A stretch of DNA of 64,000 nt, from positions 15,004,001 to 15,068,000 of the forward strand of contig NC_043009.1 in assembly GCF_006345805.1 (NCBI RefSeq). Reading direction: 5' to 3'. Numbering within the stretch: the first letter of the stretch is position 1; each line of letters begins with the position of its first letter. The notes under the pieces are model-generated. The model saw only the letters and a program-made list of their open reading frames with translations, was not told where the DNA came from and did not search any database. The DNA comes from Octopus sinensis (Eukaryota). Both the position numbers and the translations under genes were made by a program. Positions 4,177 to 63,582 of this stretch are shown one piece after another.

Positions 4177-4256
4177 TTCTACACATGTTTCAAAGGCCAC
4201 AATTTTCCAAATTCTGATTAAATAAGGATACCATATTGCAGCTTTATCTTCAGGAA
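4177..4256 (-). ncRNA. Type I hammerhead ribozyme (pLTR copy 1)
   Basis: Reverse complement of the 6284-6363 motif. Confidence 0.7.
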
Positions 4257-4882: not shown

Positions 4883-5800
4883 TCATTTATATGTAAGAAA
4901 TGTATGACGCCGCCAATGGGGACCTCGAAAAGCAGTCTGTAAAAGCCCGTTTACCAAACGGCCTCTGGCGAACAATATGTGGAAAAGCTCAGAGTTACAA
5001 AGATTACATATACTTCTGCCTCTATCAAACGGGAGGGCCACCGATAAAATCGACCATTCCAGCCTAAAAACTGAATTCGCGTTCTTCAAACGCCAGATAA
5101 GTTTGCTAAGTCCTGTAGCTTGGTATTTATCAACGTCGCGAAAAGTTGCGAAATGGTTCGATATTCTCAAGGCCAATTTTGACGCTGAGGCTCCGACATA
5201 CGAGTAGACATCCGAATCCGTGTAAACATTGCATTGGTAAATGGCATTTCTGATCTTGGAGTTACTAGACAAGAACCTTATTCTATTGGGATTTGCTTCT
5301 GATATTAATACTGCGTTCTTATTACTATAATGACTGTGAGAACTGCGGCCGCCTACTACATTATACTCCTCGTTATCAATACTAATTAACGGACTATCCC
5401 CTGTGTATTCCCTATCACTGAGAACGCTGTGGTTGCTAGTATCCGTGGACCTACTATTGTCGGAAACGTTGCCAAAGTTGCTATTAGGACTCTCTACATT
5501 AATGACCCGAACTGCGCTCACCTCCCTATTACCATTACTAACGTTATTATCATCACCATTTCTTCTATCGTTAATCCTATTATTTACTCCCTGGTTGGTA
5601 CGGAGATTACCAGTCACTGTACTGGCTCTTTTATCATTATTACTACTATTATTATTCCTACTGTGCGTTAAACTGGAATGAGACGGAGCTGCGCCTCCGG
5701 TCAATGGTGATAGGGTCTTAATAAGCAGCCTATTATTATGGGAGGCGATTATCTTGGAAAGGTTTTTTGTGTTGGATAAAGCTATCCTAACTTTATGTGA
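4883..5800 (-). CDS. Penelope-like C-terminal linker plus GIY-YIG endonuclease (5'-truncated ORF)
   Basis: Open frame SHKVRIALSNTKNLSKIIASHNNRLL (PLE post-RT motif) ... AIYQCNV..YSYVGAS..LALRISNH..F ... TGLSKLIWRLK ... CNLCNSE; extends upstream of the listed ORF 4883..5704. Confidence 0.85.
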   Translation of the reverse strand, partial: SHKVRIALSNTKNLSKIIASHNNRLLIKTLSPLTGGAAPSHSSLTHSRNNNSSNNDKRASTVTGNLRTNQGVNNRINDRRNGDDNNVSNGNREVSAVRVINVESPNSNFGNVSDNSRSTDTSNHSVLSDREYTGDSPLISIDNEEYNVVGGRSSHSHYSNKNAVLISEANPNRIRFLSSNSKIRNAIYQCNVYTDSDVYSYVGASASKLALRISNHFATFRDVDKYQATGLSKLIWRLKNANSVFRLEWSILSVALPFDRGRSICNLCNSELFHILFARGRLVNGLLQTAFRGPHWRRHTFLTYK

Positions 5801-6283
5801 GATTTCCCAGAAATTCCAAATATTACCCCACGGTTAACTCACATAAAGTTAGGATAGCTTTCTCCAACACAAAAAGCCTTTCCTAGATAATCGCCTCCCA
5901 TAATAATAGTGCTCATTATCTAGCGCCCCACGCCAACATACGGCGGCGCACACATAGGCTAGTATACACACACATGCTTTTTAGGTAGGTATTGTCTCGC
6001 ACCTAAAAAATACACCCTGAATTCTTAAAATATTCAGAACATTAACTTTGGTCATACAGAACATCTCCACACCCCTTGTTCTCATTAGTTCCTCACCTAC
6101 TAGATTTGACCGCGGCCTGACCTGGATTTATTCCAACGGACCTTTTTGTCGGCCCCCACCAACCCCCCGATTTCAACGTACATTGATAAACATTTTACCC
6201 ATGGGCTCTTAAGGAGCGTCCTCGTTCGAATTGCTCTGCTGCGCCCTTGTTTTGTTATGTTCTGACAACGTAATTCCTGGTTT

Positions 6284-26298: not shown

Positions 26299-27495
26299 AA
26301 CCACTGTCACTGATTTCGAAAAACTGTCTGAAAGCAATAATAAATATCTGAACGAGATGTAAACTGTAACCGCTCGACAACGTAAAGTATACTAGCCACC
26401 TCTACCTGTCTGACTATTTATCCATCTATCTATATGCCTATCAGACCTACCTATATTTCTATCCATTCATCTCCATTGTCAAAACAACATACGCAATGTT
26501 CTCTTGTAAAGAAAGCCCTCCAAACACATGTTTTTTACATAAATAAACAAGCTGATTGTACATTGAAAGTGTGGGTGTTACTGTAGCTTTTAGCCTCAGG
26601 AGATCATCGTCTCCAGCTGGCTTTAGGCACACTTTCTGTGCACTTACGATATTTGCAAAGGGAGGTCATCCCCTCTCGTAAACCTAAGTGATACGCACGG
26701 ACCGCAATTTCGAGGTTTTTGCCTCTTGTCAACGTATGGTAATCACCGGTTTTCGATGATGAGAGACCTGTTTGCGAATATATATTTAATATTTTTCCCA
26801 GTAACCACTGTCACTGATTTCGAAAAAATGTCTGAAAGCAATAATAAATCTCTGAACGAGCTGTAAACAGTAACAGCTCGACAAACGTAAAGTATACTAA
26901 CCATCTCAATATGGCTAACCACTAAGGATGGGTGTTACTGTAGCTTGTAGCCCCAGGAGATCATCGTCTCCAGCTGGCTTTAGGCACACTTTCTGTGCGC
27001 TTATGATATTTGCAAAGGGAGGTCATCCCCTCTCGTAAACCTAAGTGATACGCACCGTTAGCAGGATGGGACAACGAAATATTGGTTTGTCTAGATTGAA
27101 GTTGACTTTAGCAACAATAACAATATGATGGTGTGAATAATTATGATGACGATGACAAGGATAAAGATCTGGTAGGAACATATGTCGGTGCTACTGGTAG
27201 ACATCATACACACACACACACACACATACACACACATTGTCCCATTCCGCTAACGCATCCTAATATTCTCTGAACGGTGCGTATCACTTAGGTTTACGAG
27301 AGGGGATGACCTCCCTTTGCAAATATCATAAGGGCACAGAAAGTGTGCCTAAAGCCAGCTGGAGACGATGATCTCCTGGGGCTAAAAGCTACAGTAACAT
27401 CCACTCTTAGTCGTTAGCCATATTGAGATGGCTAGTATACTTTACGTTGTCGAGCGGTTACTGTTTACATCTCTTTGAGAGATTTATTATTGCTT
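26299..27495. mobile_element. Rearranged cluster of a structured, RTE-tailed non-autonomous retroelement (two direct copies and one inverted copy)
   Basis: Blocks repeat at 26299-26400 and 26802-26905, and at 26571-26698 and 26930-27056; inverted at 27272-27495; RTE-like tail on the minus strand near 26735-26770. Confidence 0.6.
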
Positions 27496-27622
27496 ATTTT
27501 TATTTCATTCTATTTTAATTATTTAATTAAAATCATTCAAGTTGCAAATACTATACTAAAGTACATTTCATCAAAAAATTCTCTCCAAAATTGAATGTTT
27601 AAAAGAAAATAGGAAACCGTAC

Positions 27623-30518: not shown

Positions 30519-30546
<28 letters not shown>

Positions 30547-30639
30547 CATTTCTAAATATCTCAGAGAGATTTATGCAGTAGTGGTACGATAAAGTAGTTC
30601 TATATTGTCAAATTAATGTAACAATCCCATGAAGGGAAT

Positions 30640-30765
30640 CATACTATTGCTATTTAGCCCTAAGAAGCAGCAGCGCTTCCTGCCGGCCTTGACTCATTTC
30701 CTGTGTCCTTATGTTTGCAATGGGGGGATAAGCACCACCACCCAGCTAAGCCTGCAGCCAGAGAT
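30640..30765. repeat. Diverged copy of the structured repeat family seen at 26.5-27.4 kb
   Basis: tactattgctatttagccc..gaagc/gcttc..ctgtgtccttatgtttgcaa resembles gttactgtagcttttagcc..ggaga/tctcc..ctgtgc.cttatgatatttgcaa. Confidence 0.55.
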
Positions 30766-30779
30766 TAGTTTCTGACTCA

Positions 30780-36199: not shown

Positions 36200-39070
36200 T
36201 GGTGAGATTTTGAGTGTCCTTGAAAATATATGTCCTTCTAAATATCGTTAGAACTTTTGTGTACCTGATGAACTTTCAAAAAATGCTGTAAAAGCTGATT
36301 TCCTATTCCCCTGAGCCATTGGGAACATTTTGACAAAAATTTACTTTGAAATATGAGTATTCGTTTTTACTTTCTGGACAAATGATATGTGATAAACTTA
36401 TTGACGCCGGGTTGGAAAACGTAGCTGAAACTTTTCCAGAAATTCCAATACAACCAACCATTTTTTTCTCACACGGAATTTCTAAGATACAACCCACACC
36501 GCACACTGTTCATTCATCACACTAGGAACAATCATTTTGTTTTGTCGATCAATTTTTTTCGATGTTTATATTTGTGACAGTTTGAACAAACCAATTACGC
36601 AGGAACTAATGGCACAAATAAAAACGTTGTACTCAACACAAACATTATTCCTAAAATTCAACAATTTCATATAATTAATCCCCAAGTTGGCGCATATGAT
36701 TGTGGCCCTTTTGCCCTGGCGTATGCATTTGACCTGGTCATTAGAAACGCTCCAGAGAACTTTCTATTTGATCAGTCAAAAATGTGAGCACATTTAAAAT
36801 TTTGCTTCGAAAATAATAAATTTCTTCCTTTTCCGAAAATACAGGTTTTGCAAATGTCTACAAAAACTACAGAAGTCACTCACTTTCTATCACCCACCCA
36901 GAAATGGATTACCCCTGAGAAGACGACTAAAAATTATAACTTCTCACATGAATATTCAGAACAAATGTTTTCACCCAGTAGGTTCTGTGTTTTAAGTAAA
37001 TATTTCTAACAAAGCCCAAAAACTAGTCCGAAATCTAATGAGATGAAGACTCTTAAAACCCCTTGCCCGGGAAAAGCCATCACACCAGAGAATAAGTCGG
37101 TCACAAAATTTTTCTAAACTAAAACTTTCACCCGACGATGTCAGCTCAAGGGCTATTTCAGTTTGTCCTCCATCACAAGTTGAAGGAATATGTTTTCGAA
37201 AAAAATGGCTAATTAGGAGCTGAACATAAAAAATTACGATGTTCGATTCTGGCATAATTGGATTGAAAAGAATCCCAGATGGTATCCTGATAAAGTTCGT
37301 AATTGACGTTCACAAGCACTACTGGCATTTCTTGAATCTTGTCAGGCAGGCATTGGAGAAAGGCTTATGACAAATGGAAAGAAATCCTAGAATAAACTCC
37401 CAAATCAGCAACGTTACGCACTCCGACGTCTAGCTAATAACGATTGTAATGTTATTGAGGTGGCGGATAATGGAGGCGCTATCGTAATTATGGACAAAAG
37501 TAAGTATGTTTCGGCTTCTGCGGAAGTTTTAATTAGCAAAACTTCATATGAAGAATTACCTGTCGATGCAAAACGCAATTACAGAAAGGAATGTTACAAA
37601 ATAATTCTGGAAATGGAGGAAAAGCAATTTCATGAATAGGTACGAATCCAGTATTTTACGGTCAGAAAGAAGAACACCTGTATTTTATGGTCTCCGTAAA
37701 ATACACAATTTACAGCAAATATGAATGTTGTACGGCCAAAATTTCGGAATGTGTGGATGGCTTTCTACTCACCGTTGCAAAAAGATCAAGTTCCTATATT
37801 CAGGATACTTTTGATTTCGTGTCTATGATCGACAACTTTTTTAAAGCACCGAGGCCGTGTCGAGAACAGTTTTTTGGTAACCATGGATGTTTCTTCCTGA
37901 TATCACAATGCTGACTACGATGAAGGAGTAGAAGCATGCATGAGTGCATTCGAAAAGCGGTCAAACAAAGGTATTCCATCAAATTACTGGAAATAAACAA
38001 ATGCTTTTGTACATCCTTATGTCAAACGCAGTTACAGTGAATCACAATTAAAGGACATAGCAAATAAAATAGCTAAAATAAGCAAAGATAGTGAAACTTT
38101 CACGCATAATTTTAGCAAACACAATACAATAGAACACAGAATTCCTTCAGTGATTAATTGACACCTAAATCTCGCTGGCATTTCAATAAGTCTTGCATGA
38201 AAGTTACCAGCATGTGATGAAAAGATATCCACGTTTGAAACAGATATTACCTCAGCCGCCTACCGACAAAATGAGAGTATGAGAGAATTATCGACTTCTT
38301 TTTCTGACTCCAAGAAAACAAACATTGGAGTATCCTCATGAGAGGTAAGCCGTGTTAATTGTGCAACAACCTGAGTCAAGTGAATTCCATTAGGATTTAT
38401 ACACCATTTGGTGTACGCGGCAAAATGCACAAAACACAACTTAATTTATGCTGGTTGTACAACAGAATAATTAAACAAAAGGTTTTAAATGGGCACAGAT
38501 TCGACGTCAGGCACAATAACAGTAGTTCGAAAGAACTTGCAGAGCATTTCGTTTCAAACGGCTGCAATTTTGAAAAAGACTTGTAAATTCATATTCTCAG
38601 TAAATATTCTGAATCTGATTCACTTTTACTTTCAGAATGCATGAGTAGAAATATATTTGCCGGTTATTAACATCACGCCTTAGATGAATGAATAAAATGA
38701 CAGGAGAATATAATCAGATTTATGCAAAATTGTATAAATTGAATATTCTTCCTTTTCCTTTTCTTTCTTTCTTTACTCATTTTTTTCTGTCTTCTTATTT
38801 TGTCGTTTTCTCTCCGCCTGTTATAAAATTGAAACTTATAGACATAATGTCATTCCATCAACATGTGGACGCTGGTTGCTCTCGTTCATACTTTAGATTT
38901 GAATTTCTGTAATTTTGAATTTTTATCACTTCCTATTTTGAACTTGACGAAGACAGATTTACTGTTGAAATATCGTTCAACCAATAAAATATCTAATACA
39001 ATCGAATCGCACTCTTCATTTAGACAGTTTACCATTGTGAAGAATTACGTCAATCCTTTCAAAAATTTTA
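36200..39070 (+). mobile_element. Degenerate Penelope-like element (RT and GIY-YIG remnants, internal deletion)
   Basis: VIEVADNGGAIVIMDK, TPVFYGLRKIH, SSYIQDTFDF, FLVTMDVSS and LNGHRFDVR..ELAEHF; 3' hammerhead; the 5' boundary is uncertain. Confidence 0.8.
38938..38980 (+). ncRNA. Minimal type I hammerhead at the PLE 3' end
   Basis: ttgaac-TTGACGA-a-gacag(attta)ctgtt-GAAAT-ATC-gttcaa. Confidence 0.65.
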
Positions 39071-39086
39071 TTATTATTATTATTAT

Positions 39087-39560
39087 TAGAAATATTAAAA
39101 TTACTAAGTCTCTCTAAAGGACATTACGGCAGCGTTACTGGATATTAATAGTTATCGCCATACTAATATGGCAGTTTATTAGTATGGCGATAACTATTAA
39201 TATCCAGTAACGCTGCCGTAATTTCCTTTAGAGAGACTTAGTAATTTTAATATTTCTATATATTATGGATGTATTCCACTGTAACTAGGTAAATAAAATC
39301 TTGGAACAGACGGTCAGTAGCGACACCTGCGGGTCTGACTACGCTGCATTGATAAAGGGCAATAACCCTGAAACATGTCTGCAGATGTCTGACTAGAAAG
39401 GTGAAGCGACTGACCGCTCCTGTCCAAAGGTTGTAATGGACACAGGTTCGTGTGTCATATAGCTAGCTAGAGGCGATGGCCTCTTGGAGCTAATCAGTGA
39501 CAGCTTTAGTCTTATATTTATAGACTGCCATATTAGTATGGCGATAACTATTAATATCCA
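39087..39560 (+). mobile_element. Non-coding hammerhead-containing unit (retrozyme / solo pLTR-like) with terminal redundancy and a 5' inverted copy
   Basis: Near-perfect hairpin 39087-39258; 30-nt direct repeat at 39177 and 39531 (period 354); hammerhead at 39344. Confidence 0.7.
39344..39384 (+). ncRNA. Minimal type I hammerhead, U3-A8 core variant
   Basis: ctgca-TTGATAA-aggg(caataa)ccct-GAAAC-at-GTC-tgcag; all three stems perfect. Confidence 0.8.
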
Positions 39561-60046: not shown

Positions 60047-60071
60047 AGCAATGTACTTAATTCTAAAATCT

Positions 60072-60590
60072 CCATAAGAGATGCAAGTAGTAACTCTACT
60101 TCAACATGGCTGCTCCGTACGGAACAACGTTGCTATTCTTTTTTAACCCTAGAGGAACACCTTCTCCAGCTGGTTAACAAGACACCCTGTGTCCAATAGA
60201 TTGCTAGCAGGGGAGCGAATCCCTACCATCTATCGATTTGACAGGGCCAGTAGATCAATATGGTTTCAGATTATATGCCTTTCCTCAGTATTGGACACCT
60301 GCCTGCTACATATGGCAGTCGTTTGCCCTAACTAGAAATATAGAGAAAAATAAGCGCTGATCTTGCAACAAAGAAAGCAGCCAGTCCTAAAACGTCAATA
60401 AGGGACGCAAGTAATAACTATACTGATAAGTAGTGTTTGTTGCCCCATCAACGTGGCTGTTCCGTATGGAACGACGTTACTACTCTTATTTAACTCCAGG
60501 AGAGTGTGCGATATATTGCGACGTGTGTAGTGAATCCTTACCATCTAGCGAGTTGACAGCCTGGTTTCAAGGTATTTGCCCTTCCTCAGT
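60072..60590. repeat. Two diverged tandem copies of a repeat related to the 26.5-kb structured family
   Basis: ataagagatgcaagtagtaact / ataagggacgcaagtaataact, tggctg.tccgta.ggaac.acgtt.cta.tctt.tttaac and gaatcc.taccatcta recur about 320 bp apart. Confidence 0.6.
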
Positions 60591-63582
60591 TTGTGGGCAG
60601 AATCTTGAATGGAAAAAAATTCCCGATCAAAAATTGCTATGCACTTCTGGCATACATCATTCTCTCCGTACATACTACAGAACTTACTGCGGGTTTTCGC
60701 GGCTTTTCATTTTTCAAATAGGAAGGCATGATTTGTCAAAATCATTTTAAACGCACAAGCACTATCTGTCTCAACGCAAGTTTGCATCGAACTACGTTAG
60801 TATGTCAGCTATCTAATGAGTATGCATCTGCATAAGATAAAATGTGAACGCTGTGTTTGGCGAACCCAATATTCAAGAAAAATATTTCATTCTGAGATAA
60901 AAAAACGTTATTATATAATAATTTAATGCATGTATCTCATTATATATATATTCTGTGTTAAACATTTTTTCATATATTAGTCAATGGCGTCATATTTAAT
61001 TTTATACACAATCTTACATAACAACCCGATCATGCTAAATAGTTGTATGACAACCGTAATTATTCATAAAATAACTGAGCACACAATATGCCATAAATAT
61101 TAATTTACTTTAATACATATTTATTGATTGCTTGATTCTTTGTTATATATATATATATAACTTGAACACATGTTATGACATGATGAAAATATCCAAACCG
61201 AAATTTATTTAAATGTTCCAATGCATTTTCTTTATCTATTAAAATCATTTTGAAAAGTTCAATGATATATAATCGATAGACGTACATATTTCAGTGAGTA
61301 AATACTGTCTTTGTTTGTTGCTTTGCCGGGGTCTATTTTGCTTTTAATAATTTCTGTGTCCATGAAATATGCACTAGTTTGGTACCAGGTACCAGTAATC
61401 GACTATTTCCTTCTCTCCAAGTTCAGATCTTATAAATTCTAAAACATATTCAGAACACTTTTTCAGAAAAAAATCTCCGTTCAGTTGGAACAGCGAAGAC
61501 AAATTTATGTTGGGCAAAATGAGTGAGAACTATTAAGGTAATTCTGCCGCTTCAAATTATGAGAATTGCTTTTTCAAAAACTAATCATAAGCATAAAGTC
61601 AACATGATAAGAAATGCAGTAAAACATTTTAAATTGCTAAGGTAAATGAAAGCGGTTCATGGAAAAATGCCCTGTGATATGAAATGAACGAAACTCGACT
61701 AGGTCTATGATCTCAACGTAAAGTTGAGATCTATAGCTTCCTCGGGATCTGCTAGATTGGCTCTCTTTGTGATATATTTACATGCCATACAATTAGAGAA
61801 GAAATTATCCAACTATTTAATTACCAATTTTAATTACAATCGAGTTGCGTTTGAGGAAATATTTCTCACCTTGTACCTGTCACCTGAATCTTTCAAACTC
61901 CACATCAACAACCATAACTATGCCGAACAATTTTTACTCCCTAAGACGATGGAACAGTTCAAAATTATGATACAACCCTTGCAATGTAATGGCTTCAAAC
62001 AAGTACAGAAAAATTAACGAAAAATAAGAAATTACTCATTCTACTCCACTTACGCATTTTACCTCGCCCCCTATACATTGAGCGAGTTTATGATATTTTG
62101 TAACCTATCTAACAGACTTCCCCACATTTTCCATCTATCCAAATTTTATGAAACCGTGACAATAAGCCAGTCATTTCAATTTACTCCAAAACCTCATGAT
62201 TGCATAGCGAATGTCTTAGTCCGTTTATGATGCTTCAGATCTTAGGCACACATACAAATCGCAACACTCCATACAAAGACAAATTAGGATATGGTTTTTG
62301 TGGAAATCGAAATAGAGGGAGAAATATAGAGTATGTTTTATTGTTTAGTAGATTTAATTTGTGGGAGGAAAAAGACTTTTCGTGTTTGTGTTCGAGAATC
62401 CTAGCAGAGCTGTTGATTTGGAGAATATTACTATGTGACCACATGGGTGACCAAACAAAATAGTGCCGGATTACATCGGCGTTGCTGAAAATGTCCATAT
62501 GCTCAAAGGAATATTTTCTTAAAACCAACCATTTTACCTGTCTTCAATCTAGTGGCGAATTGGTGAAAGTGTCTACAAAAAGTGCATGTCCAAATTTGAA
62601 CTGGATCGGGATTGAGTAGCTGTACAGGAGGAAAGTAAGTCATCGAAATTAGAAATATTGAGCTTTCAAGGATAGGTGGGCTGAACCTGGTTGAATTATC
62701 TCTCATGAGATCTATCGCACCTGGGAAAAGCCATAGACAAGTTTTTCCTCTAAGTATCAAAATTAATTATTTCACAGTGAACATACCTGCATCGATATCA
62801 TCAGCTAAATATCATAGAGAAGTTTTATGAACATATTTACTTTGAACGGTTTGTCGATAATGACGCCATGCCATATATCAACGCCGAAGAGGCATACATT
62901 GGTCTTTGACACACAGCAGATACATGTGCATTTACGACAGTATCTTTATCATGGCAGAATGTGATAATCAAATGAAGAATCTTTAATTATATGCATAGAT
63001 TCTGCAGCAGTTGTTAATTATCACTGCAATTGCAAACGTAATCTTATATGATGTTATGTCTTAATAAAGGCACGTCAAATCAACCTTAGATAAAAGGTGT
63101 TAAATCTTAGATATTTATAGTGAGGATCAGATAAAACGTAGAGTTTAGATTGTAGGTGATCCCACATTCTGTTTTGATTCACAGTTATCCATATATCATG
63201 TTGTCAACAGAGTTAATCGCCTTTTGAATAGTATAATTTTTATTACATCAATTCCAATTAATCCCAAATGCTTTATCATTTATCACCAAACATATTTTTA
63301 AAAAGATTTCGCATGCGTTGATTATCAATGGGAAATAGTTGGCGAAAGTAATATGCAAAATGCAATATGCGCTCACTGATGAATTAATGCTCATTGACAT
63401 TTGGCACAAAATATGCAAATTAAATTCATACAAGCCATACATTAAGAACGATTCCAAATCGCCATTTCTTTATGGTAATTATGAGATGTAGTACGGTTAA
63501 TAAAATGATATAAGAGGTTGAAGATGATGAAGTGGATGCAGAGTATGGGGATTAGCATATGAGTAGAGGAGGCATTGGCAGG

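Follow-up and report, generated by a model that had tools for sequence, protein, structure and literature searches.

The 64,000-nt stretch of the Octopus sinensis genome analysed here (hereafter, the window) contains a non-coding unit of ~360 nt that is probably a non-LTR retrozyme, likely relying on the protein of a Neptune-type Penelope-like element (PLE) for its copying in trans, and whose family serves as a fixed target of an L1/Tx1-type LINE. Its copies are 5′-truncated partial tandems in TA-rich microsatellites, with two fixed ends (A and B) paired, one of each, head-to-head. The claims made at the level of DNA are firm; cleavage, circles, the driver, and any LINE use of the ribozyme are what we infer. 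The unit joins the known non-LTR retrozymes, with unusually clear PLE mechanics, and the targeting by a LINE is what sets the system apart. Animal retrozymes are assumed to move with PLE enzymes, and the full PLE signature on insertions in three families provides direct genomic support for PLE-driven retrozyme movement.

The anatomy of the window copy (Table 1) agrees in most points with the original prediction. The 30-mer is present exactly at 39177-39206 and 39531-39560, with a spacing of 354; the GTC is located at 39377-39379; and no ORF was found in the unit, the longest ATG-started frame within 39177-39560 being 21 aa. The inverted partial copy proposed on the 5′ side is also there, with arms of 82 nt (39087-39168 and 39177-39258) that are 99% complementary. 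This inverted arm extends further, to 39175, joining the unit's last 7 nt to its first 82; it crosses the unit-to-unit junction, and the template was therefore longer than one unit. Terminal redundancy is not a fixed property of the unit: the 30-nt repeat is neither an LTR nor a target duplication, and other copies stop before the end of one period or overshoot it by any length. With a right arm exceeding one period by 30 nt, the window copy represents the typical A+B type. The predicted "one perfect hammerhead" exists and is single in this copy, but its core, UUGAUAA, is non-canonical, with U3-A8 in place of C3-G8. Insertion just downstream of a PLE 3′ end was likewise correct as to position, since a degraded PLE ends right upstream, but not as to any relation between the two. 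A link to this old PLE was rejected, as the unit adjoins none (0/24) of the other copies of its 3′ end, which continue into an (ATT)n or (AAT)n tract, one having a diverged piece of the unit ~1.4 kb off. The hammerhead of the old PLE also differs from that of the unit. The degraded Penelope is a mere landing site.

Table 1. Features of the window copy and its surroundings (positions in the window)
Feature	Coordinates	Strand	Remark
Right arm: full 354-nt unit 39177-39530 and 30 nt of the next unit	39177-39560	+	ends at upstream terminus, site A, unit position ~27
Left inverted arm: unit's last 7 nt and positions 1-82	39087-39175	-	ends at downstream terminus, site B, unit position 83-87
Type I hammerhead	39344-39384	+	U3-A8 core 39349-39355; helix II 39356-39369; predicted cleavage after 39379
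Long predicted rod extending helix I, hammerhead at tip	39300-39427	+	z -5.2
Empty target site of L1/Tx1-type LINE and ORF1-only derivatives	39314-39327	+	sequence duplicated around insertions in other copies
60-nt "tail" separating terminus A from terminus B	39204-39263	+	
Small hairpin just before terminus A	39526-39543	+	compensatory changes in sister families (alignment read by eye)
(ATT)n tract at the old PLE's end, landing site	39068-39086	.	
Older degraded Penelope-like element with RT and GIY-YIG remnants	37394-39066	+	own hammerhead 38938-38980; neighbour, outside the unit

As the search for further copies in the 2.72-Gb genome showed, the unit is multi-copy: 2816 candidates were obtained, and the best 40, which were scored, include near-full matches 92-94% identical. 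Two exact 20-mers of the unit occur 458 and 664 times genome-wide (reversed controls, 0). The unit is thus a dispersed family with at least 664 exact motif matches, mostly in TA microsatellites. Its length is 354-366 nt, and each unit contains a type I hammerhead (U3-A8 variant). Tandem copies with at least two hammerheads exist as dimers up to ~2.7 units, the longest arrays of this family found. Two sister families were found in flanks, one of period 357 (1821 candidates) and one of period 352 (2046 candidates) with the canonical CUGAUGA core; these and further relatives are colinear with the window family and 46-60% identical, and both sister families have two fixed ends, with tails of ~45 nt. 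Across the clade the period is kept at 352-366 nt. Of 83 loci selected for their PLE proteins (269 kb), three contain a clade insertion, which together with the window suggests, by rough extrapolation, tens of thousands of clade copies. Three more insertions of the clade, from sister families, lie in the window (26318-27509, 30532-30777, and 60058-60593), the first being a tandem with an inverted arm, split by other sequence. Elsewhere, a two-armed sister-family copy with a clean 12-nt target duplication is located inside the same old PLE family as the window neighbour (L306:1080-1420).

The unit shares many features with animal non-LTR retrozymes, as far as the consulted parts of the descriptions go (Cervera and de la Pena 2020, PMC7229834; Li, Clavereau and Pollet 2026, preprint 10.64898/2026.07.22.740005). 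It is non-coding, of the mussel-like 350-390 nt size, with a type I hammerhead per unit and GC below 50%; a highly paired circle is predicted, tandem copies occur, duplications are long when visible, and PLEs co-occur. The mussel retrozymes form circles, and PLEs were proposed as their drivers (PMC7229834). In contrast to animal non-LTR retrozymes, the octopus unit is found mostly as dispersed partial tandems of fewer than three units, with a U3-A8 core. Neither the two fixed ends nor the inverted arms mapped in this analysis appear in the consulted portions of these descriptions (PMC7229834, 10.64898/2026.07.22.740005). Vertebrate (Xenopus) retrozymes were linked to pLTRs (10.64898/2026.07.22.740005), whereas the octopus unit is without similarity to any sampled pLTR.

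To locate the ends of the insertions, 178 loci, comprising top matches and coordinate-ordered pattern matches on the first two contigs, were mapped to a natural tandem copy, giving 147 blocks; after five were dropped (second members of local duplications, fragments), 142 insertions were left, two of them belonging to one composite. Head-to-head two-armed insertions number 77 and one-armed ones 65. The 3′ ends of copies fall at unit position ~27 (site A) or 83-87 (site B), 60 nt apart. In the two-armed group, 62 insertions are A+B, two B+B, and one A+A, and 12 have one end elsewhere; thus 62 of 65 classed cases follow the A+B rule (binomial p ~1e-15), as do 39/39 of those classed in the coordinate-ordered sets. 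One-armed insertions end at B (40), at A (18), or at other positions (7). In the two sister families, which are ~50% identical to the window family, the rule holds for 9/9 and 11/12 classed insertions (counted by eye). A TA run is present within 20 nt of an end in 102/142 insertions, and a candidate non-simple target duplication of 7-16 nt in 19/142.

The hallmarks of PLE-type insertion are present, namely the partial tandem, the inverted 5′ arm, the tail at one end, and the microsatellite bias, which form the PLE pattern in the sections consulted of PMC8557442. The likeness to Neptune-type PLEs (PMC8557442, PMC11167929, PMC4209133, each in the parts consulted) covers these features, with the inverted arm 5′-truncated, and extends to a hammerhead with palindromic helix III; unlike them, the octopus unit is without an ORF and has a tail of 60 nt vs 30-40. 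According to the consulted part of PMC11167929, two RT start sites delimit the PLE tail, cutting and extension take place on both strands, and the PLE protein is a predicted dimer. The one-end-only tail is near-strict in the octopus unit (62/65), while in this in vitro study the start site was equal on both strands. The simplest reading of the A+B ends is coupled priming at A and B. It is proposed that RNA longer than one unit (an uncut multimer or a religated circle) would be bound by a dimeric PLE protein, which would nick both target strands, with reverse transcription starting at site A on one and at B on the other. Short complementarity would then join both truncated cDNAs, giving the inverted arm, and a cDNA exceeding the full period would make a copy appear terminally redundant. 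Any mechanism put forward for PLE integration, still unsolved, must account for the 62/65 rule, which can be tested with a 360-nt template in the in vitro system already established. The two arms of one insertion differ by 3.4%, vs 6.3% to other copies (61 insertions), which is no proof of the same template, because subfamily membership can explain the closeness. Shared rare alleles, examined as a test of origin from the same RNA molecule, were found in 23/252 vs 8/159 in the control, which is not significant (p 0.18). Repeats within one arm, with 319 differences in 7882 sites, were uninformative on rolling circle.

The hammerhead of the window copy consists of helix I (CTGCA/TGCAG), the core TTGATAA, helix II (AGGG/CCCT), and a helix III of 2 bp with a palindromic loop. 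The Rfam scan of the window returned no hammerhead at E<=1, only microRNA-like matches on hairpins. The U3-A8 core variant was reported for Schistosoma Cercyon PLEs (PMC4209133, in the part consulted). In a set of 12 hammerheads chosen by hand, both partners vary in 16 of 18 pairs, the 3-8 pair included, and 87% of cells pair vs at most 46% in slid controls, a comparison that favours the drawn structure because it was drawn from the same 12 sequences. The predicted circular fold of the unit has z of -4.0 to -5.9, and good folds (z -3.4 to -5.6) were likewise obtained for the antisense strands. Self-cleavage and circles of the unit RNA are predicted. In the mapped DNA, 5′ ends are not piled up at the cleavage site (0/209 at unit positions 210-213). 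Cut linear monomers are thus not the visible template, and the DNA of the window unit's family is without a positive sign of cleavage. Since 136/200 arms read through the predicted cleavage site, the templates were uncut or rejoined, and the DNA fits a linear multimer as well as it fits a circular RNA joined at the GTC. No RNA run was listed as containing the unit in the search; contigs from four runs, three presumed to be RNA and the fourth of unclear kind, span both the unit and its junction with the next unit, strand, ends, and circles being invisible in contigs. In Xenopus, only 1/9 predicted retrozymes was cleaved in vitro, according to the part consulted of the preprint (10.64898/2026.07.22.740005).

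These data leave room for a second explanation, clearly less probable than the retrozyme but with a real share of the weight: the unit might be a short, non-autonomous, SINE-like PLE made from linear read-through transcripts, its tandems arising by template jumps and its hammerhead being structural or near-inactive, with no circular RNA. The spread of 5′ ends away from the cleavage site would be expected of it, as would the weak helix III and the lack of long arrays of the window family among the 40 scored of 2714 candidates, and hammerhead mutations left PLE insertion in vitro unimpaired (PMC11167929, in the part consulted). However, the catalytic core with the covarying 3-8 pair is kept across families ~50% identical, and so is the period. 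A sister-family array of 3.9 units (L329:1391-3013), 97-100% identical internally and 91-97% to other copies, also speaks against it; this array is compatible with copying around a single template, or with local duplication in the recent past. The same holds for one junction (L419:8990-9065, also in L422 and L423), where a LINE is followed by a sister-family hammerhead that ends at most 3 nt from the predicted cleavage site and is joined to a 5′-truncated ORF1 cassette. This single event may record cleavage in vivo.

The shared flanks of unit copies led to the second part of the finding, a fusion with a 445-aa CCHC ORF. This ORF1-only cassette (13715 candidates) had no Pfam match at E<0.1 and no homologue in the database, and in the Atlas it points, as a lead, to CCHC and ZCCHC3-like RNA-binding clusters. 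The 30 nearest loci (6 of them without an end-motif match) gave 30 matched 3′ ends, 27 of them distinct; 21 run into the retrozyme 33-38 nt before the core, five into a duplicated target and the next cassette, and one elsewhere. Upstream of some cassettes a full LINE was found (19176 candidates), with a CCHC ORF1 and an APE-RT-zf-RVT ORF2; it is presumably L1/Tx1-type, a label taken from the order of its domains. Among its 30 nearest 3′ ends, 26 lie at the retrozyme target, 20 in sister-family retrozymes 31-33 nt before the core and six in the target and a next element; the others are at the first base of a U2 gene (1), at a short target look-alike (1), or truncated (2). Taken together, LINE and cassette insertions are located 31-38 nt upstream of the hammerhead core with target duplications of 13-18 nt, singly or in head-to-tail arrays. 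Target specificity is defined by >20% of flanks lying in a single repeat, at a single position and with duplication, a share that the LINE exceeds with 26/30. Of 17 more distant LINE copies, four are in the subfamily 80-85% identical to the window family and 13 are away from these retrozymes, making the targeting a subfamily trait. An intact LINE (ORF1 493 aa, ORF2 1132 aa) was found in the 80-85% subfamily with a 17-nt duplication. In the window's own >90% subfamily, no RT-bearing LINE was present in 89 coordinate-ordered loci, ORF1-only cassettes alone being found (4/89), and the target site of the window copy is empty. Near-identical LINE copies with open frames suggest that the element is recent and assayable.

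Seven LINE bodies differ by 0.1%, their retrozyme flanks by 3.3%, and empty copies by 4.6%, which argues for independent insertions at one site. Each duplication has the sequence of its own host family. These data point to a LINE that inserts independently and site-specifically before the hammerhead in the retrozyme clade. It is improbable that LINE targeting is only apparent and that PLE machinery, together with recombination with empty units, amplified a single ancestral composite of LINE and retrozyme. Composites do spread as units: an odd junction at unit position 51 is common to four composite loci, one cassette is 5′-truncated straight into a TA tract, and some composites were copied whole, keeping their A/B ends and inverted arms. 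Nevertheless, the flanks are ~30 times more divergent than the LINE bodies, the duplications match their own hosts, and the LINE is also inserted with its own duplication at a look-alike site, as a full-length copy right where a U2 snRNA gene begins (L441:2456-2649 / L463), the first bases of which resemble the retrozyme target. This U2 copy has a piece of the retrozyme target at its 5′ end, which suggests transcription from an upstream retrozyme. In the proposed model of independent targeting, the LINE endonuclease would select the site ahead of the hammerhead, the retrozyme would serve as a multi-copy safe haven and probably also as an upstream transcript, and some LINE-retrozyme composites would then be copied whole by the PLE machinery. 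A broader scheme of three tiers of RNA parasites can be put forward tentatively, and we would sooner bet against it. In it, Neptune PLEs would drive a long-lived clade of circular hammerhead RNAs; the LINE would land before the ribozyme and use flanking hammerheads and transcription to free its RNA; ORF1-only cassettes would make coding composites riding the PLE machinery; and the strict A+B ends would be the trace of a dimeric PLE enzyme that primes each of two strands at a different site.

The octopus LINE resembles the target-specific members of the Tx1 clade (Tx1 in Tx1D, Tx1-Mar in Mariner-N4, Keno in U2, Kibi, Koshi; PMC4494074, PMC4640811, in the parts consulted) in its CCHC ORF1 and APE-RT-zinc-finger ORF2, a fixed site in a multi-copy repeat, target duplication, and tandem insertion at the regenerated site. 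Unlike in these elements, its target is a hammerhead retroelement itself probably dependent on another retrotransposon, and its ORF1-only derivatives are abundant; its U2 copy lies at the 5′ start, whereas Keno is inserted at nucleotide 38/39. Targets listed in the consulted parts of PMC4494074 and PMC4640811 are DNA transposons, U2, microsatellites, and unnamed satellites, and the last might include hammerhead repeats. A search of mainly open-access literature found no paper in which a LINE targets retrozymes and none describing retrozymes from this type of genome. A LINE that inserts at a fixed distance before a hammerhead adds a new target class for site-specific retrotransposons, with one parasite living on another. 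The ORF1-only cassettes also occur in head-to-tail arrays of 3-5 with a period of ~1.7 kb, many with open frames of ~440 aa (L406-L413), and a more distant LINE subfamily forms tandem pairs away from these retrozymes (L453, L455-L462).

If the unit were the ordinary pLTR of an unsampled autonomous PLE, its copies would be truncated 3′ ends of that element. We regard this as very improbable, although the PLE census covered 150 scored of 5029 GIY-YIG candidates. The unit is preceded by the same unit again, and after the tail comes the rest of the unit with no ORF. In tblastn, which covered 130 loci (48 loci fetched later entered the flank comparison only), PLE protein matches were found in six, all at least 430 nt from the unit, and in none (0/130) was the unit contiguous with an RT-GIY-YIG ORF; the ORF1 cassette was the only long flank shared among the 64 5′ flanks compared. 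The alternative of tandem solo pLTRs of an autonomous PLE, raised in the original prediction, thus found no support, and the question of linkage to an RT ORF is answered by the lack of any copy continuing into a Penelope ORF. The preferred reading of the same prediction, a retrozyme-like, non-autonomous unit that Penelope-like machinery copied off a tandem or circular template, withstands this test and the test of copy number, the unit being multi-copy.

None of 121 PLE-containing loci yielded an autonomous PLE whose pLTR is homologous to the unit, and the driver is therefore assumed. The genome contains two young PLE families with open RT-EN frames and TA ends, whose CxxxxCxxC linker we take to mark them as Neptune-type. 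This assignment is consistent with the consulted part of PMC8557442. One family has the UUGAUAA core and helix III as in the unit, with a tail of ~37 nt (60 nt in the unit); the tail of the other is roughly 60-70 nt (read by eye). Both, like several other families, have no pLTR sequence in common with the unit. That the LINE and not a PLE provides the reverse transcriptase moving the retrozyme is the least credible explanation, for although the LINE, young and abundant, occurs in physical linkage with the retrozyme family, the ends, TA targets, and inverted arms of the retrozyme match PLE insertions, and the LINE's own insertions differ, each having a single 3′ end, a fixed target, and a duplication of 13-18 nt.

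In the young Neptune-type families, an upstream ORF of 479 and 385 aa (L107:1174-4874 and L061:2350-6176, respectively) precedes the RT-EN ORF. In L107, it overlaps the RT-EN ORF in the -1 frame at a T TTT TTA-like run, presumably a frameshift-type motif, and the overlap is suggestive of ribosomal frameshifting. Elsewhere in the window, near-identical stretches at 4253 and 6287, on opposite strands and ~2 kb apart, flank a 316-aa frame (4883-5833) and are possibly the terminal inverted repeats of a DNA transposon.
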